IMG/VR virus record: IMGVR_UViG_3300044630_002232
Location: 1 to 28,237 of that record
Length of the DNA stretch: 28,237 nt
DNA from: a virus
Lineage: Duplodnaviria > Caudoviricetes
Direction: 5' to 3' (one strand)
Shown: one piece after another, positions 8,998-28,237 of the stretch
Layout: each line of letters begins with the position of its first letter
How positions within the stretch are numbered: position 1 is the stretch's first letter
Translations under genes and position numbers: made by a program
The notes under the pieces: model-generated
Databases searched by the model: none
Seen by the model: only the letters and a program-made list of their open reading frames with translations
Told to the model about the DNA's origin: nothing

Positions 8998-9192
8998 ATG
9001 GCATACGCTGCCGCCAAAGAGCCGCCACCCTGGGGGCGCTGTGAGGTGTGTGGACTGAGCAGCCGCGTGTGGAAAGCCAATGAGTCTATCGTTGCGCTAG
9101 GCGCTGGGTACGCGGTGGTTGAGGGTGAGGGCTATTGCCGCGATTGCATTGCGCTGGCTGTTGAGCTGGCAGGCTCAGAGGATATTGACTAA
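8998..9192 (+). CDS. Small zinc-finger protein (CxxC...CxxC, 64 aa)
   Basis: CEVC and CRDC pairs; last ORF before the tandem hairpins. Confidence 0.6.
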   Translation: MAYAAAKEPPPWGRCEVCGLSSRVWKANESIVALGAGYAVVEGEGYCRDCIALAVELAGSEDID

Positions 9193-9245
9193 GCAGCCCT
9201 GAGAGGCTGCTTGACCCCCGCCCGTACCCTCCTCACGGGCGGGGG
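9191..9245 (+). terminator. Tandem hairpins ending the late operon
   Basis: AAGCAGCC/GGCTGCTT (9191-9212) and CCCCCGCCCGT/ACGGGCGGGGG (9215-9245). No clear U-tract, so the terminator role is uncertain. Confidence 0.5.
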
Positions 9246-9290: not shown

Positions 9291-9339
9291 GCAACAACCG
9301 TTGCAAACGCTTGACAAGCGTTGCAGGGGGGTATACCTT
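9291..9339 (+). promoter_or_regulatory. Early promoter P1 with palindromic operator
   Basis: TTGACA 9311-9316, 17-nt spacer, TACCTT 9334-9339. Palindrome AACGCTTG-A-CAAGCGTT over the -35 and GCAAC-N4-GTTGC at 9291-9304. Confidence 0.8.
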
Positions 9340-9345
9340 AGGGGA

Positions 9346-9387
9346 GTCAGGGAGTGAATCCACCAAACGGTGGGCCTGGCAGGGAGT
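9346..9387 (+). promoter_or_regulatory. Structured 5' leader, copy 1
   Basis: GTCAGG/CCTGGC outer stem, GAGTGAA bulge, TCCACC/GGTGGG inner hairpin, then AGGGAGT RBS. Confidence 0.65.
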
Positions 9388-9393
9388 AAAGAA

Positions 9394-9687
9394 ATGGCTT
9401 TTGATGGCACACATATCTCAGTGGATTTGATTGCTAATGCCAGCGATTTGACTACAGAGGAAAAGATTAAAAGCTTGCGCGGAAAAATGGCTGCACAAAC
9501 CAGACAAATTAACGCTCTAAATATTTGGATTATCCGCTACAGCTCGCCGGATTATGTACCTACCAGCTACAACACAATGAGTGGTGCAGAAAATATTGTG
9601 TGGTGCGAAAGGGAAATCATTAGACATACGGCACAGCGCGAGCGCATTGCCGGTTTGCTTGCCGATGTGAAAAAGGCGGTGCGCTGA
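9394..9687 (+). CDS. Hypothetical early protein (97 aa, lower GC; start revised to ATG 9394)
   Basis: AGGGAG RBS at 9381-9386; TGATG coupling to the next ORF. Confidence 0.75.
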   Translation: MAFDGTHISVDLIANASDLTTEEKIKSLRGKMAAQTRQINALNIWIIRYSSPDYVPTSYNTMSGAENIVWCEREIIRHTAQRERIAGLLADVKKAVR

Positions 9688-9908
9688 TGCGCAGCACGCG
9701 TTATTGGGTAGTTGAGCGTGACGCTCACGGCGATTGCGTGGGCGATTACCTGAGCGCGGCTATACATAGCGATGCACTCAAGCTTGCCGGTCAGATTAAG
9801 CGCAGCGCTGACGCTGACACGGTGAGCATTGAGCTGGGCAAGATTGTTGACTTTGAGGGGCCTGCCCAAAATGAGCAGGTGCTAAAGGTGTGGGAGGTGG
9901 CACGATGA
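9687..9908 (+). CDS. Hypothetical early protein (73 aa)
   Basis: Coupled at both ends (TGATG, ATGA). Confidence 0.7.
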   Translation: MRSTRYWVVERDAHGDCVGDYLSAAIHSDALKLAGQIKRSADADTVSIELGKIVDFEGPAQNEQVLKVWEVAR

Positions 9909-9991
9909 TTACCAAGATTGCTGAGGCGCTGAGTGTGGCGCTGTTTATGTTTGCAATGGTGCTGCTACTTGCAGCGGGAGGGATGCAGTGA
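9905..9991 (+). CDS. 28-aa single-TM microprotein (not in ORF track)
   Basis: MITKIAEALSVALFMFAMVLLLAAGGMQ; GGAGGT RBS; ATGA and GTGA overlaps. Confidence 0.65.
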   Translation: MITKIAEALSVALFMFAMVLLLAAGGMQ

Positions 9992-10152
9992 AACTGAACA
10001 GGGCTAATGAGCCGGTGGTGCTCACTGATATGCGCCCGCTCAGCGTGCCGCGCTTGGTGCGCGGTGAGCAGCGTGCAGACAAACTGCGCTTTATTGCGCA
10101 GCTGCTTTTTGCTCTTGCTGGCTGGGTGTTTATCTATGCGTGGTTGAGTTAG
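9988..10152 (+). CDS. 54-aa protein with C-terminal TM (not in ORF track)
   Basis: MKLNRANEPVV...FIAQLLFALAGWVFIYAWLS; GGGAGGG RBS; coupled at both ends. Confidence 0.65.
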   Translation: MKLNRANEPVVLTDMRPLSVPRLVRGEQRADKLRFIAQLLFALAGWVFIYAWLS

Positions 10153-10340
10153 TGCCGCTCTATGTGTATCAGTGCCCCGTATGCAAAGCGCTTGATGAGC
10201 GCCTGCAAACGATTGATGCGCCACTTACTCCGCGCTGTGAAAAGTGTGGGTGCTTTATGCCCCGCGTAATCAATGCACCGGCGGTGCAATACAAAGGCTC
10301 AGGGTGGGCAAAGCAGGATAGAAAAAAGGAGGGAAAGTAA
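10152..10340 (+). CDS. FmdB-family zinc-ribbon protein (start revised to GTG 10152)
   Basis: MPLYVYQCPVC...CEKCG...RVINAPAVQYKGSGW is the FmdB/CxxC_CxxC_SSSS pattern. Confidence 0.85.
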   Translation: MPLYVYQCPVCKALDERLQTIDAPLTPRCEKCGCFMPRVINAPAVQYKGSGWAKQDRKKEGK

Positions 10341-11276
10341 ATGGCAAGAGTGTTTGAATTCGTGAAGGCCGCGCAGCGCTCACCTATATGGTTTGAGTTG
10401 CGCAAGGATGGAATCACAGCAACTGATGCGGTGGTGATTGCAGGGCTGTCACCGTACAAAACCCGCTACGAGCTGTGGGCACAAAAGAGCGGGCTGATTG
10501 GCGAGCAGCCAGCAGGTGAGGCTGCCACCCGCGGCATCCTGCTTGAGCAGGCTGTGGCTGATTGGTACACGCTAGAAACCGGCAGGAAGTTGAAGCGCAG
10601 CAATGGCATTGTGCGGCGCATTGATATCCCGTGGGCAATGGCAAGCCTTGACCGCACGGTGGTGGGTGAGCCTGGTTTGGTGGAGGTGAAAACCAGCACC
10701 AGCAGCCGCTGGCAGCTGTACCCAGTGCCGCCTGAATATGTGGCACAGGTTCAGTGGCAGGCATTCTGCACAGGCGCACCGTGGGTTGATGTGGTGGCGC
10801 TGCTAGGTGGGCTGAAGTTTAGGTGTGAGCGCGTAATGGCTGACCCTGACTATCAGCAAGAGCTGTACCGCAAGGCGGTTGAGTTTCGTGAGCTGATTGC
10901 CAGCGGCAAGCCGCCAGAGGTGATTGGCACAGACTCAGACACGCTGGCAAAGGTGGTACCGCAAGCCAGCGATGAATGGGCACACGCTGATGACGGCATT
11001 GAGCGCGTGGCTGAGCAGTATGCTGACGCGCTCTATGAGAGCAAGCTGGCTGATGAGCACCTACAGAATCTGGCAGTGGTGATTAAGGAAGCCATTGGGG
11101 ATAAGGTGGGCGTTACCGGCAAGGGCTGGTACGCCAGCTGGAAACAGAATAAGCCAAGCCGCAAGGTGGATTACAAGGCGGCGCTGGAGGCGGCAAAGGT
11201 GCCGCAGGAAATCATTCAAAGCGCAACTCAGGAAGTACCTGGGGCGCGGGTGTTTAAGTTTAAGAGGGGGGAATGA
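10341..11276 (+). CDS. YqaJ-like (lambda Exo family) 5'-3' exonuclease
   Basis: W..LR..GITATD, SPYKT, G..LE, ASLD, EVKT, Y..QVQWQ motifs. Confidence 0.92.
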   Translation: MARVFEFVKAAQRSPIWFELRKDGITATDAVVIAGLSPYKTRYELWAQKSGLIGEQPAGEAATRGILLEQAVADWYTLETGRKLKRSNGIVRRIDIPWAMASLDRTVVGEPGLVEVKTSTSSRWQLYPVPPEYVAQVQWQAFCTGAPWVDVVALLGGLKFRCERVMADPDYQQELYRKAVEFRELIASGKPPEVIGTDSDTLAKVVPQASDEWAHADDGIERVAEQYADALYESKLADEHLQNLAVVIKEAIGDKVGVTGKGWYASWKQNKPSRKVDYKAALEAAKVPQEIIQSATQEVPGARVFKFKRGE

Positions 11277-12010
11277 TGAGCAAGGAAATCGCAGCGGCGC
11301 TTAGCGCGCCATTTGAGGCTAAGGATTTGAAGCAGCGCCCAGGCAGGGCTGGGCTGGTGTTCACCTACGCGGATGCCCGCGCAGTTGCACAGCGGCTTGA
11401 TGATGTGCTGGGTATCGCTGGCTGGCAGTTTGAGGTAAAGGTGGCTGACCCTGCTAGGTGCGTGGTGCACGGCAGCTTGGCGCTGGTGATTGATGGCAGC
11501 ACCACAATCCGCCAAGATTACGGGTATCCCAATGGCCCGCAGGATGATGAGCCGCTGAAGTCAGCGGTGAGCGATGCGCTCCGCCGGTGCGCGGCGCAGG
11601 TGGGGGTAGGCCGCAGCCTTTACAGCCCCGATAAGAGCGCTGGGGCTACCAAGCCCCACATTGCAGCGGCACCAGCCCTTAGCGTGGCGCAAACCACCCC
11701 TGCAGGGCATTCTAGCGAGGGGGTCACAGCCCCTTCAAACGATGACCTGCTGGCAGTGAAGGCTGCAATGATTTTTGCAGAGTCAACCACTGAGGGCACT
11801 TGCAGCCACGGGCAGGCTTGGAGCCTGAAGCCAGGCGGGGTAAGCAAAGCTACGGGGAAGCCCTATAACCCATTCTGGGCAGCGAGCCACAAGGCACCTG
11901 ATGGCTCGTGGTGCAAGGATAAGCCAAGCAATCAGTGGGTAGCAGCCCACAGCAAGCCCGCGGCACCGGCACTGGTGCCTGAGGATACCTTTGAGGATTT
12001 GCCTTTTTAG
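11273..12010 (+). CDS. Rad52/Rad22 (Sak)-family single-strand annealing protein
   Basis: LSAPF, YADARAVAQRLDDVLG...W, KSAVSDALRRCAAQVGVGRSLY; adjacent to the exonuclease. Confidence 0.88.
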   Translation: MMSKEIAAALSAPFEAKDLKQRPGRAGLVFTYADARAVAQRLDDVLGIAGWQFEVKVADPARCVVHGSLALVIDGSTTIRQDYGYPNGPQDDEPLKSAVSDALRRCAAQVGVGRSLYSPDKSAGATKPHIAAAPALSVAQTTPAGHSSEGVTAPSNDDLLAVKAAMIFAESTTEGTCSHGQAWSLKPGGVSKATGKPYNPFWAASHKAPDGSWCKDKPSNQWVAAHSKPAAPALVPEDTFEDLPF

Positions 12011-12020
12011 GGTTCAGCAA

Positions 12021-12052
12021 TGGGTGGTGGCGGCGGGTTACGCCACCACCCA
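12021..12052 (+). promoter_or_regulatory. Strong intergenic hairpin before the replication initiator
   Basis: TGGGTGGTGGCG/CGCCACCACCCA 12-bp stem, no U-tract on the + strand. Confidence 0.55.
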
Positions 12053-12071
12053 CAAAACAGGGAGGGAATAA

Positions 12072-12512
12072 ATGGCACAAGGCGCGTGGATTAAGTTGAG
12101 CGTGGGATGGGATGAGGATGAGCGGATTGCGGTGCTACCACCGCTGGCGCAGCTCACCTATCTGAAGGTGTTGACACGGGCGAAGCGGCAGCGCCCTCAG
12201 GGTAGCTTTGGCAGCATTGAGCATTTGCGCACTCTGGTGCCTGCTAACCTGCACAAGCACTTATCAACATTGGTGAAGGTTGGCTTACTTTTTGAGTCAA
12301 ATAAAAGAATTTGCGTAGACAACTTTTCTAAATATCAAGTAGACCCTAGTGCAACGGAGCGCTCAAACAGGTTCAGAATGGCGCAACGCAACGGTTTTGC
12401 AACGCAAATGCAACGCACTGAGATAGAGAAAGAGAAAGAGAGAGAGAAAGAGAAAGACACTCTTACTAAACAGCCAATGCAAGTAGGCAAGATTTTGAGA
12501 GGCGGTATCTGA
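12072..12512 (+). CDS. Replication initiator / replisome organizer (lambda O / Phage_rep_org_N-like)
   Basis: N-terminal WIKL, wHTH-like L..L...GLL, NFSKYQ...ATERSNRFR, EIEKEKE linker; internal repeats. Confidence 0.8.
   Translation: MAQGAWIKLSVGWDEDERIAVLPPLAQLTYLKVLTRAKRQRPQGSFGSIEHLRTLVPANLHKHLSTLVKVGLLFESNKRICVDNFSKYQVDPSATERSNRFRMAQRNGFATQMQRTEIEKEKEREKEKDTLTKQPMQVGKILRGGI
12350..12458 (+). repeat. Putative replication origin: GCAACG iterons followed by a purine tract
   Basis: GCAACG at 12351, 12383, 12388, 12399, 12410 (last three 11 nt apart), then an A/G tract at 12420-12457 inside the initiator gene. Confidence 0.7.
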
Positions 12513-12880
12513 TGATGCGCAATGAGGGAGCAACCCACATTGACACCACGGGCATTGAGGGGATAGTTCCAGCAAACCCAAAGTGGGGTTTCTCAAACAT
12601 TGACCTTATCGGTGAGCGCAAGGGTAGGTTTCTGGTACAGGAATGGAAGCGCCCTAATGAGCAGTTGAGCACAGGGCAGAGGATTCTTTTAGAGCAGTTG
12701 GCGAAGCAGCCAGCCTTCACCGTGCTCGTGGTTACAGGGCACACCGCCGGTACGGCAATGACGGTGCACGCGGTGCACGAGATTATCGGCGGCAAGGCGC
12801 AACTCATTGCCACCACCACGGAGGCATTTAGGGAGTGCATCAGTGTCTGGTACGGCAAGGTTGAGCGTGGTGAGCTATGA
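12512..12880 (+). CDS. Hypothetical protein with PD-(D/E)xK nuclease-like motif
   Basis: NIDLIGE...FLVQEWKR...LSTGQ. Confidence 0.55.
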   Translation: MMRNEGATHIDTTGIEGIVPANPKWGFSNIDLIGERKGRFLVQEWKRPNEQLSTGQRILLEQLAKQPAFTVLVVTGHTAGTAMTVHAVHEIIGGKAQLIATTTEAFRECISVWYGKVERGEL

Positions 12881-13452
12881 AGCGCACGGTTGCCCTAATC
12901 GGGCCACAGGGCGCGGGTAAAACTACCTTGGCTGAGTTGCTGGTTGAGCACCGCGGCTACAGGCGGCACGGCATTGCTGATGGCATCAGGCGCGTGCTGC
13001 AAATGGCATACCGCGAGGGTGTCAGCAAGGGCGAAACCATTGACCTTCAACGCTTCAGCGGCAAGGTGACCCTCACAGGGCGCGAGCTGATGCAGGAAGT
13101 AGGGATGGCACTCCGCGATGTTGACCTTCATTTTTGGCTGCGCGTGTGGTCAGAGGGGTATAGCCAACTTTGGCAGAATGGCGTGCCCGTAGTGGTTGAC
13201 GATGTAAGGCTGCCCAGCGAGGTGCAAATGCTGCGCGTGATTGAGCCAAGCATTGCCATTGTGCGGGTGCACGCTGATGCTGAGGTGCGCAGGGAGCGTA
13301 GGGCTGGTGAATACACCGGCAATGGTGATATCACTGAAACAGGGTGGGAGGGGGCAGCGTTTGATGCCACGATTGACACCACCGCTTGCACGGTGCAAGA
13401 GGCATATGCAGCCCTGGTGGCTGCGATTGATGGAGGGAGTGAGAATGTTTGA
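12877..13452 (+). CDS. Deoxynucleoside monophosphate kinase
   Basis: P-loop GPQGAGKTT, RELMQEVG...R, VVDDVRLPSE. Confidence 0.85.
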   Translation: MKRTVALIGPQGAGKTTLAELLVEHRGYRRHGIADGIRRVLQMAYREGVSKGETIDLQRFSGKVTLTGRELMQEVGMALRDVDLHFWLRVWSEGYSQLWQNGVPVVVDDVRLPSEVQMLRVIEPSIAIVRVHADAEVRRERRAGEYTGNGDITETGWEGAAFDATIDTTACTVQEAYAALVAAIDGGSENV

Positions 13453-13645
13453 GCAGTTGAACACGCTATGCGCAATGGTGGGGTATCAGTTTGATGCCCT
13501 GCTGGCGGTTCCAAGCGGCGGCTTTGTCTGCGTGCTCGTGGATAGGCTTGATGGCGAGCTGGAGTTTAAGGGCGAAACCCCACAGGCAGCCGTGCAGGCC
13601 GCCATTGACCGGCTTGAGGTAGTAAGTGGGAGTATTGCCCATTGA
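13445..13645 (+). CDS. Hypothetical protein (66 aa; start revised to ATG 13445)
   Basis: GGAGGGAG RBS; GETPQAA.QAA motif seen in small phage proteins. Confidence 0.65.
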   Translation: MFEQLNTLCAMVGYQFDALLAVPSGGFVCVLVDRLDGELEFKGETPQAAVQAAIDRLEVVSGSIAH

Positions 13646-13824
13646 ATACCTTTAACGCTCTAGGGGTAACGCTGGCAGTGCTGCAGCTCACGATGGCAAT
13701 ACTGGTTGCGCTTTCTATCCCCACTGCAAGCAAGCGCGGCAGCGGTTGGCTGGCTGCTATGTACGCAGTGCTTGGGTTTGCTACCGTGGTGTGGATTATG
13801 AGGGCGGCACTATGGCAGGCGTAA
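13642..13824 (+). CDS. Small two-TM membrane protein (60 aa)
   Basis: Two hydrophobic helices; TTGA overlap; GGGAG RBS. Confidence 0.6.
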   Translation: MNTFNALGVTLAVLQLTMAILVALSIPTASKRGSGWLAAMYAVLGFATVVWIMRAALWQA

Positions 13825-13991
13825 AGACTTCACGGGGCGGCGCAAGCAAGGCACCCGTGTTTGCGCCTACCCCGTGCGCTGAGTGCGGGCAAACCATTGA
13901 CACCGGCAAGGATGCCACCCGTGTGCTGCGCATTGGCTATGAGCCCAAGCAGCGCAGGCTGGAGTGGATGCACAAGGCGCACATAAAATGA
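13812..13991 (+). CDS. Small Zn-finger-like protein (start revised to ATG 13812)
   Basis: GAGGG RBS; CAECG...HKAH. Confidence 0.55.
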   Translation: MAGVKTSRGGASKAPVFAPTPCAECGQTIDTGKDATRVLRIGYEPKQRRLEWMHKAHIK

Positions 13992-14224
13992 CCCGCAGGC
14001 GATGGCGCTGCACTTTTTGCAGGCAGCAATTTGCGCCACCCAAGGATGGCAAGATTCCTTGGCTATGGCTCTGCGCGCCCTGCGAGATAATGAAAATTGA
14101 GCAGGCTGCGGATTGGGTGAGTTCAGAAGTTACGCACTTTGTACGCGCAAAAACAAAAGGCACGCAGCCAAATTACTCACGGCTATCTTGGGCATTACGG
14201 GAAGCAGAGAGGTACGCCAAATGA
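13988..14224 (+). CDS. Small CxxC...CxxC protein (start revised to ATG 13988)
   Basis: ATGA overlaps at both ends; CTFC and CAPC. Confidence 0.55.
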   Translation: MTRRRWRCTFCRQQFAPPKDGKIPWLWLCAPCEIMKIEQAADWVSSEVTHFVRAKTKGTQPNYSRLSWALREAERYAK

Positions 14225-14514
14225 CCCGCATAGAGCGAGCTGCACCATTCCTTGATGAGCGCGTGATTGCGGTGCAAGAGGGCGCTGATGCGTGGTGCTA
14301 TGAGCCTGGGGTTGGAGGCAGGGCGTGGTGCATTCTCAGCCAGCGCTTTGCTGATGCGGTAGCGCCTGAAGGCTGGTTTTTTCTGTACGAGGGAATTGGA
14401 AACCGAAAAACAAACCTAGACCTTGTGAAGCACGGGCTAATGGAATTGGAGCAGAGCCGGTTCACCTTGAGCGATGGCGGCACCGCGCAGCTCGCAAGGC
14501 TTTTAGAGGAATGA
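14221..14514 (+). CDS. Hypothetical protein (97 aa; start revised to ATG 14221)
   Basis: GAGG RBS and ATGA overlap. Confidence 0.65.
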   Translation: MTRIERAAPFLDERVIAVQEGADAWCYEPGVGGRAWCILSQRFADAVAPEGWFFLYEGIGNRKTNLDLVKHGLMELEQSRFTLSDGGTAQLARLLEE

Positions 14515-14594
14515 GCAAAATGCCCGTGCCATTTATTTTTTACGCACAAACTAAAAATGTGTTGAGCGTGAAAGTTAGTGAAACGGAAAAACAG

Positions 14595-14669
14595 CGTTGC
14601 ACCGTATGGTATAATGGTGTTAGCAGTGAGGAAGCAAACCAAAAGGTTTGCACTGCAAAAGGAGTGAGA
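14595..14669 (+). promoter_or_regulatory. Promoter P3 (extended -10) with CGTTGCA box and structured leader, copy 2
   Basis: CGTTGCA 14595-14601; TGGTATAAT 14607-14615; GCAGT/ACTGC stem, GAGGAA bulge, GCAAACC/GGTTTGC hairpin; AAGGAG RBS; AT-rich upstream. Confidence 0.75.
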
Positions 14670-14672
14670 GGA

Positions 14673-14849
14673 ATGCAAAAGAAAAACTGCATTGGTGTAA
14701 AGCGTAGAGCTGGCGATGACGGCAAGTGCAACAAGCCTAGACTTCATAGCTGGAAATACAACGGCAAAAAACTATATTGCACTGATTGCTTTACTTACAA
14801 AATCAATGAGATGAAGCTGCGAGATACCAGGGTTCGGTTCGGAATCTGA
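14673..14849 (+). CDS. Small basic Cys-rich protein (58 aa), likely true start inside track ORF 14511..14849
   Basis: In-frame ATG 14673 after AAGGAG RBS and promoter P3; low GC; C...C...CxxC. Confidence 0.6.
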   Translation: MQKKNCIGVKRRAGDDGKCNKPRLHSWKYNGKKLYCTDCFTYKINEMKLRDTRVRFGI

Positions 14850-15232
14850 TGGGGCACTTCAAGGATGAGGCGATTAAGCAAGGCATTGACCCAGCCAAGA
14901 GCCGCAAGGGTAAAAACAGCCGCCAACGCGGGCACGCGTTTGAAAGATTTGTGGCGGAGAAACTTGGCGGTAGGCGTGTTGGACACTTTGGCGGAAAAGC
15001 AGATGCCACCGGCGGTGAAGGTGAATGGCTGCAGGTGCAATGTAAAGTGGGCGGCAGCTTCAGTGAGCGCCAATGGGATTGGCTGCAGAGTGTGCCCGTA
15101 AAGAGTGACCAGCTGCGTGGCTTGGTGATTGGTGACAGCCCAGGCGTTGGAGGCGGGCGAAGGCGCGCAGTTATCGTGCTGGATTTGGATGACTTCACAG
15201 AGTGGTTTGTAAGCAAGCCAACCGATGAGTAG
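14849..15232 (+). CDS. Holliday-junction-resolvase-like PD-(D/E)xK nuclease
   Basis: SRQRGHAFERFVA...AD...VQCK...LDLDDF pattern typical of phage Hjc-like resolvases. Confidence 0.7.
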   Translation: MGHFKDEAIKQGIDPAKSRKGKNSRQRGHAFERFVAEKLGGRRVGHFGGKADATGGEGEWLQVQCKVGGSFSERQWDWLQSVPVKSDQLRGLVIGDSPGVGGGRRRAVIVLDLDDFTEWFVSKPTDE

Positions 15233-15806
15233 CGCCAACTTTGCGGCGCGCTTTGCACCGCACCTAGGCGCAACCCGTAGGTGGCAGGCGTTTGTGTTTA
15301 TCGCTGATGCCCTCGCTGAGCTGCGCAGACCTATCGGCATTGTTGAAACAGGATGCTTGCGCCAGCCAGATAACTGGGCAGGTGACGGCCAGAGCACCGC
15401 GGTGTGGGATTGGCTGCTTAATCAGCACGGCGGCTATGGGCATTCCTATGACATCAGCCCAGACAGCGTGGCAGCAGCCCGCGCAGCGGTAAGCAAGATG
15501 GAGGTGCACCAGCAGGATTCTGTTGAGGCGCTGCGCACATTCCCAAATGCCAGCACCATTGACCTGCTCTATTTGGATTCCTATGACTGGACGGCTAACA
15601 GCGATGCCAGCGCCCTGCACCACCGCGCTGAGCTGGACGCTATCTATGACCGCCTGCGCCCAGGGTGCCTCATTGCGGTTGATGACTGTATGGGCAAGAG
15701 CAAGGGTAAGCACGCGCTGGTGCTGCCGTGGCTGGCTGAGCGTGGGGTTGAGCCTATTGTTACAGGGTATGTATATGTGTGGCGCAAGCCACCTGCAACG
15801 GCTTGA
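15225..15806 (+). CDS. Class I SAM-dependent methyltransferase (Methyltransf_24-like; not a DNA MTase)
   Basis: IVETG, YDI, DSVEAL, IDLLYLDS, LRPGCLIAVDD motifs. Confidence 0.85.
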   Translation: MSSANFAARFAPHLGATRRWQAFVFIADALAELRRPIGIVETGCLRQPDNWAGDGQSTAVWDWLLNQHGGYGHSYDISPDSVAAARAAVSKMEVHQQDSVEALRTFPNASTIDLLYLDSYDWTANSDASALHHRAELDAIYDRLRPGCLIAVDDCMGKSKGKHALVLPWLAERGVEPIVTGYVYVWRKPPATA

Positions 15807-15885
15807 CACCGTTGCAACAGGGGTGCTAGGATTGCTTCAGCAGCGAGGAAACCGGCAAGTTGCTGGAGCTGCAAAAGGAGTGAGA
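15794..15885 (+). promoter_or_regulatory. Promoter P2 with palindromic operator and structured leader, copy 3
   Basis: TGCAACGG-CTTGACA-CCGTTGCA (15794-15816); TG-C-TAGGAT 15824-15832; GCAGC/GCTGC stem, GAGGAA bulge, CCGGC/GCTGG hairpin; AAGGAG RBS. Confidence 0.8.
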
Positions 15886-15887
15886 AA

Positions 15888-16088
15888 ATGAATGCAACCG
15901 CTCTAAGGATTGCAACGAGGATTATCACCGAAACCTACCCTGCCGCTGTGGTAACGGCGCTTGGCAAGTTTAAGTTCAATGGCACTGACTTTACCGGCAA
16001 GGTGCGGGTTACTGGTTACCAGATGCGCCCAGTAATTTATGCAGTCACCGCTAAGGGCTCTGCAGTATCCCTAAAGGCGGTGCGCTAA
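15888..16088 (+). CDS. Hypothetical early protein (66 aa)
   Basis: Strong RBS; TAATG coupling. Confidence 0.7.
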   Translation: MNATALRIATRIITETYPAAVVTALGKFKFNGTDFTGKVRVTGYQMRPVIYAVTAKGSAVSLKAVR

Positions 16089-16336: not shown

Positions 16337-16725
16337 TGACCGCCCTGCTGCTGGCGTTGAGTTTAGTGCTCAACCCAGCAGCTCCACCCCGCTCTCACGG
16401 CGTGGCCTCGTGGTATGACGCAGAGCGCAAGGGGCAAAGCAGCTGGTACAGCCGCGCAGGCATAATCAATTACGCAGCTGCTGCAGGCTGGCGCTGGGGG
16501 CAAAAACCTTATATGCTGCGGGTCTGCCGGCAGGATGACAAAAACAAATGCGTGGTGGTGACCGTAGTTGACTGGTGTGGCAGGTGTAATAAAGATGCGG
16601 GGAGAAAGTGGAAAAAAAACAGCAGGATTCTAGACCTATCACCGGCAGCGTTTATGAAACTGGAAAGCCTGGGGCGCGGGCTAGTACGCGTAAGCATTCA
16701 GGCAATCCAACCGCGCGGGCGCTAA
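16336..16725 (+). CDS. Secreted RlpA-like double-psi beta-barrel (lytic transglycosylase/expansin-like) protein
   Basis: Hydrophobic signal peptide, GVASWY, VVVTVVDWCG, RILDLSPAAFMKL...GLVRV. Confidence 0.85.
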   Translation: MTALLLALSLVLNPAAPPRSHGVASWYDAERKGQSSWYSRAGIINYAAAAGWRWGQKPYMLRVCRQDDKNKCVVVTVVDWCGRCNKDAGRKWKKNSRILDLSPAAFMKLESLGRGLVRVSIQAIQPRGR

Positions 16726-17129
16726 TTGACGATTTCTCGCACGCGGTGCGTATATGGGCACACCGCCTGAAGGTAAGCCCAAACAAACTCTTTGGGATGA
16801 CTGAGCACCACCAGCGCAGCGTGCACTGGATGCGTGAGCGCTACTTTGGTGGCGTGGTGCCAACACTTGATGAGGTTGAGTGGGTGAAGGCGTATGCCCT
16901 AGCGATTACACAAACCCTTGCAGAGCCTACGCAACTGAAGCGCTACCAGCTAGTGGTTGAGCAAATGTGCCGCACTTGCGTAGGCGCAGAGCAGCGTGAC
17001 CGCTACCCAAAGTGCTGGGATGCAACCTGCCCACTGCGCCCCATTAGCCCGCTGCCGTTGGCGGATAGTGCCAAGACCAAGGCACCGCTTGACGCTGACC
17101 GCGCCTATGAGCGCCCAGGCGAGGCGTAG
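16608..17129 (+). CDS. Hypothetical protein with C-terminal CxxC...CxxxxCPL metal-binding motif (start uncertain)
   Basis: Only long + strand ORF filling the gap; the GTG 16608 start overlaps the RlpA-like gene by 118 nt. Confidence 0.6.
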   Translation: MEKKQQDSRPITGSVYETGKPGARASTRKHSGNPTARALIDDFSHAVRIWAHRLKVSPNKLFGMTEHHQRSVHWMRERYFGGVVPTLDEVEWVKAYALAITQTLAEPTQLKRYQLVVEQMCRTCVGAEQRDRYPKCWDATCPLRPISPLPLADSAKTKAPLDADRAYERPGEA

Positions 17130-17142
17130 TGTAGGATTCGGC

Positions 17143-17212
17143 AACGCCTGTGATTCACTCCACAGGCACCCCGCCCGCTGGTGGTGTCCTCCCACCGGCG
17201 GGCGCTATTATT
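17143..17212 (+). ncRNA. Candidate two-hairpin small RNA with anti-SD loops
   Basis: TAGGAT -10-like at 17132-17137; hairpin GCCTGTG/CACAGGC (loop ATTCACTC); 13-bp hairpin 17172-17204 (loop TGTCCTC); then CTATTATT. Confidence 0.5.
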
Positions 17213-17216
17213 AGGC

Positions 17217-17298
17217 GGGGCGGCGTAGATGCAGCGGCTCATATAGGCAATGCCTGAGCGTGCTAAACGCGGGGTGCAACTCCCCGCCCGCTCCATCA
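17217..17298 (+). ncRNA. tRNA-Ala/tmRNA-TLD-like mini RNA
   Basis: Acceptor GGGGCGG/CCGCTCC with G3:U70 and discriminator A; T-arm GCGGGG-TGCAACT-CCCCGC; no D-stem and no canonical anticodon loop. Confidence 0.6.
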
Positions 17299-17735: not shown

Positions 17736-18046
17736 GGTTTCAGCGCCCCTGCCTTGATTGCGGAATACTCACACAGGGCGGAAACCGCTGCGAGGTGCAC
17801 CGGCGCGTAGCTCAAGCAAAGTGGAAGCAGGGCAGACCCAACCCGTACCTAAACCCAGCGTGGCGCAAGCTGAGCGCCCAGGTGCGCGCTAAGCGCCCGT
17901 GGTGTGAGGGATGCGGTGCCACTGGGGTGAGGCTGACCGTTGACCATATCCAGCCCCTGAGCGCAGGCGGGGCGCTGATTGTGCCAGAGCACGCGTTAAG
18001 GGTACTATGCTTGCAATGCCACGGCAGAGTGACGCGGCACAAATAG
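17732..18046 (+). CDS. HNH endonuclease (HK97 gp74-like packaging cofactor)
   Basis: RPCLDCG...C..H; Y...WRKL; CEGCG; VDHIQPLSAGG; LCLQCH. Confidence 0.9.
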   Translation: MRFQRPCLDCGILTQGGNRCEVHRRVAQAKWKQGRPNPYLNPAWRKLSAQVRAKRPWCEGCGATGVRLTVDHIQPLSAGGALIVPEHALRVLCLQCHGRVTRHK

Positions 18047-22251: not shown

Positions 22252-23439
22252 GTGGGAATTATTGACCGCATCCTTGGGCGAGAAACAGAAACTGAGCAGC
22301 GCGTTGTTGCACCGTGGTGGCCCTCAGACTATCCGCAACGCACCGCCGGTGTTTCAATCACACAGGAAAATGCTACCGCAATTGGAGCCGTATGGGCCGC
22401 GGTGAATCTCTATAGTTCAACGGTGGCAAGCCTGCCGTGGGGCGCATTTATCCGTGATGCTGGTGTGCGCAGACCCGTTAACCGCCCGCGCTGGATGGAT
22501 GTGCCAATTCCTAATAACCCTAACTACACGCCATTTGATTTCAAGCACCGTTTGGTTTCCAGCTTGCTGCTTGACGGCAACGCATTCATTCTGGTGCTGC
22601 GCTCACCTGACGGCGTAGTTGTTGAAACCCGCGTGCTTGACCCGCAAAAGGTTGAGTGCGTGCGCGGCGAGATGGGCGAGCCGCTTTACAAAATCACTAC
22701 ACAGGAAGGCAGCAGCACCCTTGGCGCTGAAAACATTGTGCACATTCCGCTGTTTGCAACGGGCGAGCATATGCGTGGAATGTCACCAATTGAGCACCAC
22801 CGCGTAACCCTTGGGCTTGCAAGCGCATCCCAATTGTTTGGCGCGAAGTTCTACGAGCAGGGCGCAACGGTTGGCGGTGTGGTGAAGGTGCCTGGTGAGT
22901 TGACGGCAGACCAAGCAGAGAATCTGCGCGCAGGATTTGCACGCAGGCACGAGGGTGTTGACCGCGCTTGGCGCGTTGCAGTGCTCACCGGCGGTGCTGA
23001 CTATTCACAGATGAGCGTAAAGATTTCTGACCTGCAGCTTGTAGAAACTCTGCACTGGGGTGTTGAAAGCATTGGCCGTATCTATGGTGTGCCCCTTCAG
23101 TACCTGCAATACCCAGGCGGCAACACATCCTACGCAAGCGCAGAGGCTCTTGGGCAGGCCTGGCTAGTTTTGGGGCTTGCTCCAATGCTTGCACGCATTG
23201 AGGCTGGCTTGCAGCGCCTTATCGTTGGAGAAACTACATTTATCAAGTTCAACACCGCTGGATTGCTGCGAGCAACGCAGCGTGAGCGTATGGATTCCTA
23301 TGCGGTTGCTTTGCAAAACGGAATTCTCACGCTAGATGAAGTGCGCACTTATGAGGATTTGCCGCGGCTCGCAGTTGGCGGTGACCAGCATTGGAAGCCA
23401 CTAAACATTGGCGTAGTAGGGGAGGAGCCGCAGCCTTGA
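22252..23439 (+). CDS. Portal protein, HK97 family
   Basis: V.SLP, LLLDGNAF, GMSPI, IGRIYGVP, GILTLDEVR..EDLP. Confidence 0.95.
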   Translation: MGIIDRILGRETETEQRVVAPWWPSDYPQRTAGVSITQENATAIGAVWAAVNLYSSTVASLPWGAFIRDAGVRRPVNRPRWMDVPIPNNPNYTPFDFKHRLVSSLLLDGNAFILVLRSPDGVVVETRVLDPQKVECVRGEMGEPLYKITTQEGSSTLGAENIVHIPLFATGEHMRGMSPIEHHRVTLGLASASQLFGAKFYEQGATVGGVVKVPGELTADQAENLRAGFARRHEGVDRAWRVAVLTGGADYSQMSVKISDLQLVETLHWGVESIGRIYGVPLQYLQYPGGNTSYASAEALGQAWLVLGLAPMLARIEAGLQRLIVGETTFIKFNTAGLLRATQRERMDSYAVALQNGILTLDEVRTYEDLPRLAVGGDQHWKPLNIGVVGEEPQP

Positions 23440-26413: not shown

Positions 26414-26467
26414 TCTCTAAGAGTTAGAGATTGATGACGAAAGGGGCTGGGCGAAAGCCCAGCCCCT
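26412..26467 (+). terminator. Two hairpins after the capsid gene (attenuator or mRNA-stabilising)
   Basis: AATCTCTAA/TTAGAGATT (26412-26432) and AGGGGCTGGGC-GAAA-GCCCAGCCCCT (26442-26467); weak U-tract. Confidence 0.6.
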
Positions 26468-26488
26468 AAGTCTTAGAAAGGAAATTAA

Positions 26489-26737
26489 ATGCTAGTGCGA
26501 ATGCTTGAGCGAATCCTTGGCACGCGCAACGGGGTTGCCTGGCCGCCACGCGGCGGGGTGATTGACCTGCCTGACGCAGAGGCTCTAGCTCTATTCGCGC
26601 ACGGATACGCACAGCCCGTACCCCCTGCTAAAACCCCCGCATTTGCCCCTACGGAGCCCGTAGAGGCGGCTGTAATCCACGAGGCTAGGGAGAGTGCCAC
26701 CGTTAAGCGCACCAAGAGGGGGAAAAGCGCCCAATGA
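26489..26737 (+). CDS. Small post-capsid hypothetical protein (82 aa)
   Basis: AAAGGA RBS; GGVIDLPDAEA..L...GYAQPV. Confidence 0.75.
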   Translation: MLVRMLERILGTRNGVAWPPRGGVIDLPDAEALALFAHGYAQPVPPAKTPAFAPTEPVEAAVIHEARESATVKRTKRGKSAQ

Positions 26738-27009: not shown

Positions 27010-27614
27010 TGAGTTACGCAACGCTGGCAGAATTCAAGAGCGCTATTGGGATTGGCACCGCTGACACCACTGATGATGGTGCGCTGCAATCTGTGCTTGA
27101 TGCAACTGATGCGCTGATTGACCTTTACACAGACCGCAAGCAGGGCTTTGGCACTGCAACTGAAACGCGCTACTACACCGCCGGTGATTGGTCATATGTG
27201 CTGACTGATGACATTGTGAGTGTCAGCCAGCTGCAGACTGATGATAACGGTGACGGCACTTACGAAACCACCTGGACGGCGGCAACGGATTATGTGCTTG
27301 CTCCGCGCAATGCTGCGCTTGATGGCTGGCCTTACACAGAGATTGATACGAGCACACCAGCGCCTAAGGCATTCCCTGTTGCGGTATATCTTGGCGTGAA
27401 GGTAACTGGCGTATTTGGCTGGCCTACAGTTCCAAGCGCAGTGAAGCAAGCCGCAATTATTCAGGCTGGTGCTGTGTGGTCATCTAGGACAAGTCCATTC
27501 GGCATTATTGGCTCGCAGGAGCTGGGTGGAATTTTGCGCCAGACACGCGCACTGCATCCTGAAGCGCAGGTGCTGCTTGACGGATTCCGCAAGCGCGATG
27601 GGTTGGCGCGGTGA
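27009..27614 (+). CDS. Head-tail adaptor/connector (HK97 gp6 / SPP1 gp15-like, 201 aa)
   Basis: YATLAEFK, L..ATDALID.YT.R, GWP.VP.AVKQA. Confidence 0.85.
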   Translation: MSYATLAEFKSAIGIGTADTTDDGALQSVLDATDALIDLYTDRKQGFGTATETRYYTAGDWSYVLTDDIVSVSQLQTDDNGDGTYETTWTAATDYVLAPRNAALDGWPYTEIDTSTPAPKAFPVAVYLGVKVTGVFGWPTVPSAVKQAAIIQAGAVWSSRTSPFGIIGSQELGGILRQTRALHPEAQVLLDGFRKRDGLAR

Positions 27615-28054
27615 GTTTCAACGATGTCACCATTATCAACGCGCTCGCAGCGCACCTAACAGCGGCAACACCGCCTACCGGCTACACACTCCGCAAGGTG
27701 CACGCATACCCGCCAGACAATCTTGCGGTAGTGCCAGCAGCGGTGATTGTGCCCGCTGATGACAGCGTGAGCTACGGGGCGGCAAATAGGCAGGTAACGC
27801 TCAACCTTGCGGTTACGGTGTACCTGCACCCACAGGCTGACTTGGGGCGAAAGTACCAAGACCTTATGGCGTGGCGCACCTGGTTGCGTGATTCTCTTAT
27901 TGACGGTGTTACACTTAACGGCACTGACGCGGTGGCGCAAGCCAGCGTGACGGGCACAAGCATTGGCAATGACCAATGGAATGAAATGGATTACCTAACA
28001 GTGACAGCCACCGTAGAGGTGTCAGCAGTGGAGGCAATTAATGCCAGCGCGTAA
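27611..28054 (+). CDS. Putative tail terminator, variant allele of 229..672
   Basis: Same length, few amino-acid differences. Confidence 0.65.
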   Translation: MSFNDVTIINALAAHLTAATPPTGYTLRKVHAYPPDNLAVVPAAVIVPADDSVSYGAANRQVTLNLAVTVYLHPQADLGRKYQDLMAWRTWLRDSLIDGVTLNGTDAVAQASVTGTSIGNDQWNEMDYLTVTATVEVSAVEAINASA

Positions 28055-28237
28055 GCCATACGAAACAGCAGACCAAATTGAAGTGCAGTATGTTGACGGC
28101 TCGCTGCCTCGTGGAGAGTTTGTAGGCGGGTTACCGCTTGACGGCTCTACAATCAGCGTGCCTGCTACTATTGCTCAGGCGTGGATTCAGGCGGGCGTTG
28201 CCAAGCCTGTAAATAAGACAGCCGCACCAGCGGCTAT
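28041..28237 (+). CDS. Variant allele of 659..874, truncated by the window end
   Basis: MPARKPYETADQIEVQY versus MPPRKVTENSEQIEVQY. Confidence 0.7.
   Translation, partial: MPARKPYETADQIEVQYVDGSLPRGEFVGGLPLDGSTISVPATIAQAWIQAGVAKPVNKTAAPAA

Follow-up and report, generated by a model that had tools for sequence, protein, structure and literature searches.

A conserved bulged leader RNA at probable early promoters of a phage and a candidate antisense partner

Introduction

What does a small bulged RNA hairpin do when a tailed phage (Caudoviricetes) repeats it behind three likely promoters? The question is raised by IMG/VR record IMGVR_UViG_3300044630_002232, a stretch of 28,237 nucleotides (nt), here called the window; as its ends overlap at 96% identity, it spans a complete phage genome, about 27.4 kb long. 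The original prediction had noticed that the leaders behind three promoters, P1, P3 and P2, share one fold although their stems differ in sequence, and had proposed a cis-acting RNA that coordinates early genes. We describe here a conserved phage leader RNA that is absent from Rfam and has, in the window's clade, a specific candidate antisense partner: S2, a two-hairpin element at 17146-17204.

Results

The shared fold is present as predicted, in its stems, bulges and coordinates. The P1 leader hairpin (9346-9380; + strand, like every promoter, leader, open reading frame (ORF) and RNA element below) consists of a 6-bp stem, a GAGUGAA bulge (9352-9358), a second 6-bp stem and an AAAC loop. In the P3 leader (14623-14656) a 5-bp stem, a GAGGAA bulge (14628-14633) and a 7-bp stem follow one another, and in the P2 leader (15840-15872) a 5-bp stem, GAGGAAA (15845-15851) and a 6-bp stem. 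The P2 purines are thus where a bulge had been claimed, but they form a 7x1 internal loop opposite A15867 and not a pure bulge.

Each hairpin lies between a promoter-like sequence and a ribosome-binding site (RBS). At P1 the -10-like hexamer TACCTT (9334-9339), a consensus match only, stands 17 nt past the -35 sequence TTGACA (9311-9316); P3 has an extended -10, TG-N-TATAAT (14607-14615, with TATAAT at 14610-14615), and no -35 hexamer; P2 has a -35 at 15803-15808 and the -10 sequence TAGGAT at 15827-15832. The stem starts 6 nt after the -10 box at P1 and 7 nt after it at P3 and P2, in agreement with the original prediction, and the exact 17-mer common to P3 (14653-14669) and P2 (15869-15885) is likewise there. 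The hairpins had also been said to adjoin the GGAGU of the RBS directly; the actual gap is 2-4 nt. The sites are 9382-9387 at P1 (first ORF 9394-9687), GGAGUGA at 14661-14667 at P3 (first ORF 14673-14849) and GGAGUGA at 15877-15883 at P2 (first ORF 15888-16088). We call these units early because of the gene content downstream of P1, which probably marks it as such: small ORFs, an FmdB-type zinc ribbon, a YqaJ exonuclease, a Rad52-like annealase, a replication initiator and a deoxynucleoside monophosphate (dNMP) kinase.

The fold is specific to these three sites. A descriptor of at least 5 bp, GAG[GT]G?AA and at least 4 bp finds exactly P1, P3 and P2 on both strands of the window, and a covariance model, R1, whose training set included the three window leaders, scores them at 43, 41 and 37 bits against 9 bits for the next site. 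Shuffled sequences (hairpin plus flanks) folded as well in 4 of 200 cases for P1, 0 of 200 for P3 and 13 of 200 for P2, where the minimum-energy fold with flanks keeps the lower stem and loses the inner one. We rejected a kink-turn, for which G-A on both strands is found at P2 but not at P1 or P3, and dropped a supposed likeness of the bulges to purine-rich loops of ribosomal RNA, RNase P and the signal recognition particle, which had no Rfam support.

Searches with YqaJ and with alignments of Rad52 and of a metallopeptidase supplied the relatives, 243 partly redundant loci with the window included; the last three of these searches retained the best 80 of 287, 125 and 122. In a sequence-only alignment of 38 leaders, chosen partly for folding, 87.8% of cells pair and 10 of the 12 stem pairs have changed on both sides; no shuffle out of 500 matched the pairing or the covariation score, slid controls pair at 22-37%, and RNAalifold recovers 10 of the 12 pairs. 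The bulge contains GAGGA in 27 of these leaders, AGGA in 6, GAGUGAA in 4 and another sequence in 1, and is mostly GAGGA followed by A or C. Stems begin 5-7 nt past the -10 in nearly all parsed leaders. A set of 104 loci anchored on the S1 hairpin upstream of P1 (described below) holds the motif in 32 of 36 distinct leaders, the four exceptions all coming from one distant group. A promoter-anchored pattern scan of 17 of the 64 parts of the viral collection (120 loci) yielded 22 distinct loci that passed the fold test, 16 of them family-like and 6 chance-like, and a model scan of 91 loci gave 66 strong hits, many of which are training sequences.

In close relatives all cassettes are kept while the first gene behind them is swapped. 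Covarying stems, together with a bulge that is retained as the downstream gene changes, bear out the claim of a conserved cis-acting leader RNA, and the 38-leader alignment confirms that both bulge and pairing persist in related phages. Coordination of several early promoters, also proposed, holds in the window's clade, where most loci carry two or three copies, and fails in more distant relatives, whose loci each have a single copy, placed at the first promoter. The original prediction had recognised no known family, and Rfam 15 gave no match over the three leader hairpins. No description of the motif appeared in the titles and abstract beginnings of the literature searched. Five short motifs were absent from the searched files of Fremin 2023 (PMC10690425), whose alignments lay outside that search and may list the motif, and two of these motifs and three contig identifiers had no match in its file 4; main-text matches in Weinberg 2017 (PMC5737381) included nothing resembling the leader. 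We conclude that, even if its pairing with S2 should fail, the leader stands as a cis-acting RNA motif with good support and no counterpart in Rfam.

The original prediction had suggested that the bulge might bind a small RNA, and a concrete candidate partner, which it had missed, lies 1.3-7.8 kb downstream of the leaders. S2 consists of two side-by-side hairpins with a stability of about -41 kcal/mol, and none of 200 shuffles folds as well. Hairpin A (17146-17167) exposes the loop AUUCACUC (17153-17160); hairpin B (17172-17204), which is very stable, has a 13-bp stem, the loop UGUCCUC (17185-17191) and a partly U-rich tail, which gives it a terminator-like score but is not conserved in relatives. 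A -10-like hexamer, TAGGAT (17132-17137), precedes S2 without a -35 consensus, and a TA...T hexamer stands at a similar distance in most of 21 representatives. In 186 of 191 locus rows the metallopeptidase gene is preceded by hairpin B, with a loop ending in UCCUC; two rows have other hairpins and three (L251, L252 and L262) have none, and these three belong to a distant group in which the leader is degenerate or absent. Among 29 sequences, whose rows had been selected as hairpins, every cell of the hairpin B stem pairs and 10 of 12 pairs have changed on both sides. G-U pairs put leaders and S2 on the + strand and disfavour a reading of S1 and S2 as minus-strand decoys, which we set aside. The best Rfam scores over S1 and S2 are far below gathering.

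S2 loops and leaders are complementary in a specific arrangement. The sequence GGAGTGAATC occurs once on the + strand, in the P1 bulge, and its reverse complement once, in loop A. With flanks, loop A complements the P1 bulge along 10 nt, and it matches the P2 and P3 RBSs over 7 nt; of 235 hairpins on both strands, no other has a loop whose match to the P1 bulge exceeds 6 nt. When loop A with one flank was ranked with opening costs included, the P1 bulge came 1st, the P3 RBS 2nd and the P2 RBS 4th of 610, the third predicted target being an RBS at 13436; for the bare loop the ranks were 1, 2 and 7 of 304 sites. Eight loci have both a GAGUGAA bulge and loop A, 73 have neither, and in one locus loop A accompanies only P3/P2 leaders. 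The 8 phage contigs found with loop A share it letter for letter, and its stem shows a compensatory change.

Loop B is complementary to the P2 and P3 bulges over 5 nt in the window and to all 7 nt of the P2 GAGGAAA in most close relatives. In five of these (L014, L018, L020, L022 and L249) the loop is UUUCCUC, the full complement of GAGGAAA, and it ranks the P2 bulge 1st of 134 sites in L014 and 2nd of 129 in L020, the two tested. More broadly, GAGGA, the complement of the conserved UCCUC, lies within the bulge in 27 of the 38 leaders, and AGGA in 6 more. At the P1 RBS the loop B match is short, 5 nt, and partly inside the stem. From the matches of loops A and B it follows that each leader has one site per loop, with bulge and RBS swapped in P1 relative to P2 and P3.

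Just past S2, at 17217-17295, lies a 79-nt element resembling transfer-messenger RNA (tmRNA), with an acceptor stem, a G3-U70-type pair and a T arm and without an mRNA-like domain; 30 distinct versions occur in relatives, and ARAGORN missed it. The RNA of phage DS6A that consists of a tRNA-like domain only is of the same kind (PMC4131195). In the window, 5' processing of the tmRNA-like element could release the 3' end of S2. In the distant group that has no hairpin B, a long multi-hairpin intergenic region follows the metallopeptidase gene (L251 12420-12595; L252 16327-16589). Loci L355 and L348 lie on a single 37-kb contig with two different metallopeptidase loci, which suggests a chimeric or two-phage assembly.

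The three promoters also have in common a DNA palindrome that the original prediction did not mention; its core is AACG-N9-CGTT, and 8-10 nt separate the end of the palindrome from the -10. At P2 (15794-15816) it is perfect, TGCAACG-N9-CGTTGCA, with the -35 inside the spacer; at P3 (14579-14601) it has one mismatch and is perfect in the relative L020; at P1 (9303-9325) its left arm is degenerate, and it lies over the -35 (9311-9316). Other clades have different palindromes at their promoters. Most of the 80 distinct contexts returned by a scan with the operator pattern were unrelated. A candidate binder of the palindrome, as a lead only, is the product of ORF 16608-17129, a helical Cys4 protein with a conserved core at 16725-17129. 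Among 41 leader rows, the palindrome core and a homologue of this ORF are found together in 18 and are both missing in 11; another 11 have a homologue but not the exact core, and a single row has only the core. The protein model is of moderate quality (mean predicted local distance difference test score 63), and its fold matches, mostly XRE-type helix-turn-helix proteins, are not significant (best E 0.55).

S1 (9190-9245), just upstream of P1, is likewise a pair of hairpins, the second with the loop ACCCUCCUC (9226-9234). This loop is anti-Shine-Dalgarno (anti-SD)-like, no U tract follows, and the element is kept in most relatives, though it was not found in L299. Its best predicted targets are mostly ordinary phage RBSs, and Rfam gives only sub-threshold atoC, sX13 and 6C scores. 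S1 is likely the 3' end of a late transcript or operon, and possibly a second pairing RNA.

The annotated genes are all on the + strand. The terminal overlap (1-855 with 27383-28237) is just 96% identical over its first 300 nt and includes amino-acid differences, which suggests that two strain variants were merged during assembly. Scans of 41 and 28 proteins found no integrase or repressor families. The best named match of TerL is from a Pontimonas phage (45%), in which the leader motif was not found (best model score 11.6 bits, E 0.22), and a host search by genome scan returned one weak locus and no host assignment. Clustered GCAAC/TTGCA-type repeats at 12388-12415, within the replication-initiator ORF 12072-12512, are possibly origin iterons or additional operator half-sites. 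A hairpin at 26429-26493 separates the capsid gene from the next ORF and is probably a terminator plus RBS; on the - strand it scores 25 bits for suhB (gathering 41). At about 18001-18042 there is a further promoter-like site, TACTAT, the fourth; the leader hairpin behind it has no purine bulge, and the arrangement is kept in relatives upstream of the glycosyltransferase gene.

Discussion

We suggest, with a probability of about 0.5, that S2 is a C4-like antisense RNA and the leaders its target sites, and that it likely represses early translation. Because its loops complement the leaders, S2 would likely act on them as a small RNA. Leaders and S2 would each be transcribed from their -10-like boxes, S2 likely later than the early mRNAs. 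The leader stem, predicted to sit at the 5' end of the message, likely caps it and may hold the bulge open as a toehold. On P2 and P3, loop B would then engage the bulge and loop A the RBS, and on P1 the reverse, so that 30S loading would be blocked or decay hastened; this repression may add to repression at the shared DNA palindrome. A bolder form of the proposal, which we regard as tentative and somewhat doubtful, is that the later-made two-loop RNA kisses RBSs and bulges already formed in the 5' hairpins to silence all early units, and that one-base changes in bulge and loop serve as lineage address codes for shut-off or superinfection exclusion, without lysogeny.

Several results weigh against pairing between S2 and the leaders. 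The allele-specific match amounts to one evolutionary event, since it is confined to one clade: a register test of loop B against bulge yields p=0.004 when all 35 combinations are used and p=0.37 for the 25 outside the clade, where bulges reach only ranks 10-40 among about 200-320 sites for the bare loop. Copies of hairpin A with a different loop were sought in vain (13 loci comprised the 8 phage contigs with the identical loop and 5 unrelated ones), and because all 8 share that loop, no second covariation event was found. In the window itself, loop B (UGUCCUC) ranks the P3 and P2 bulges only 28 and 50 of 589. Matches are inflated because every loop resembles an anti-SD sequence and every target an SD sequence; the region 22504-22546 likewise reaches the 10/7/7 lengths seen for whole leaders, and RBS targeting has no early-versus-late bias (p=0.56-0.79, with two of 46 start coordinates slightly off), which gives no support to a sparing of late genes by the loops. 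Loop B could also pair in cis with a downstream GAGGAC in many relatives, and nested co-folding, a method that cannot model kissing, gives no loop-bulge duplex. L251 retains a bulged leader though it has no hairpin B, and no loops complementary to the odd bulges of L251 and L266 were found inside those partial loci. Finally, the conserved stem letters (CRG/CYG and a C-A..G loop closure) are not explained by pairing with S2.

These letters lead to the main rival, that the hairpin is a site for a phage or host protein controlling translation of the first early gene, the S2 match being secondary. In the 38 leaders, whose operators differ, G7, C21, G26 and C33 never vary and C5, A22 and G35 hardly ever do; such letters fit protein binding better than pairing with S2, and most bulges contain GGA. 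Mu Com and CsrA are precedents for leader sites bound by proteins, and the phage encodes small Cys-rich proteins, including the FmdB-family zinc ribbon (TIGR02605, E 6e-9). We nevertheless consider this explanation rather unlikely: it leaves the unique 10-nt complement of loop and bulge unexplained, bulge length and sequence vary, and FmdB-like genes occur, among the matches listed, also in relatives free of the motif. The original prediction had also offered a 5' stabiliser, which accounts for the stem but not for the bulge. An extended version, in which the hairpin does no more than shield the start of the message and the bulge serves as an SD-like 30S standby site boosting early expression, would suit the 5-7 nt between -10 and stem in nearly all parsed leaders, the 5' hairpins at other promoters of the phage family and the resemblance of the bulges to phage RBSs. 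It strikes us as improbable, as the leaders of those other promoters have no purine bulge, GAGGA followed by A or C matches the canonical anti-SD core over 4 nt only and UCCUC over 5, and loop A is left without a role.

The direction of control might also be reversed, with S2 serving as an attenuator or leader for the later operon and early leader RNA binding it to activate or antiterminate later genes, or to join both ends of one early transcript. S2 does come after the early block and before the later operon, hairpin B has a partly U-rich tail and a terminator-like score, and with UUUCCUC the P2 match extends two base pairs into hairpin B. The match of loop A to the P2 and P3 RBSs, however, points to the leaders as the targets, the U-rich tail is not conserved and hairpin B is very stable, and we judge this reversal very improbable. 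Antitermination by the leader itself, another of the earlier suggestions, obtained no support.

If the pairing between S2 and the leaders is true, it constitutes a C4-like antisense circuit, unrelated in sequence to those of coliphages, in a large uncultured phage family without recognisable lysogeny genes. The module would be compact, with a 35-nt target, a 60-nt RNA and a natural allele pair, GAGUGAA and UUCACUC. It also suggests a route to other orphan phage leader motifs: to seek the matching loop elsewhere in the same genome.

How does this arrangement compare with known systems? The HK022 put antiterminator RNA has two stem-loops and acts on, and binds, RNA polymerase. The leaders resemble put in being structured RNAs with a bulge right behind early promoters; they differ in having one hairpin each, abutting the RBS. 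In PeSL cassettes of the T4-type phages RB49 and phi1, a promoter, a stem-loop and an SD sequence are repeated before variable small ORFs (PMC2839356), as a sigma-70-like promoter, a stem-loop and an SD sequence are repeated here before genes that change. Most PeSL stems, however, are placed between the two promoter boxes or overlap the -10, and PeSLs are marked by terminator activity and mini-circle recombination, whereas the leader stem is downstream of the -10, contains a conserved bulge and is matched by a partner element; the S1 hairpin upstream of P1 comes nearer to the PeSL stem. S1 and S2 share their general layout with cuckoo and other anti-SD-loop small RNAs, and cuckoo RNAs have adjacent hairpins with variable stems and conserved C/U-rich loops (PMC4615179). 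Unlike cuckoo RNAs, with two to four hairpins that each carry the loop CCUCCUCCC, S2 has two different loops, AUUCACUC and UGUCCUC, is phage-borne and has no Rfam match. In the rows compared of the GUCCY-hairpin (Weinberg 2010, PMC2864571) GUC and CY flank the stem, whereas GUCCUC belongs to a loop in S2.

Closer parallels come from phage RNAs that pair with early leaders. The CI RNA of the satellite phage P4 is a small phage RNA that pairs with two early-leader sites through seqA and seqC (PMC4825925), and S2, loosely, is likewise a small phage RNA with two sites per leader. P4 CI RNA is encoded within the leader that it controls, with a target on either side, is excised from that transcript and causes termination; S2 stands 1.3-7.8 kb from the leaders, follows a -10-like box of its own and matches sites that include RBSs. 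C4 differs from S2 in having three stem-loops rather than two adjacent hairpins, and S2 has no match to RF01695. C4 is also processed by RNase P and has a role in lysogenic immunity; integrase and repressor families were not found among the window proteins scanned. The leader target is a bulge in one 5' hairpin, unlike the c4-a1b1 rows, which look like two tandem hairpins (PMC2864571). In C4 of phages P1 and P7, one loop covers the RBS, the other acts at an upstream specificity site, and changes of a few bases in the loop set specificity (PMC5320573). A C4-type joint change of loop and target may have occurred here, in one clade (8 loci with both, 73 with neither, 1 partial; p=0.37 outside). 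By its complementarity in the window's clade, S2, like C4 (RF01695), offers two exposed loops for two sites on the mRNA, one of them the RBS.

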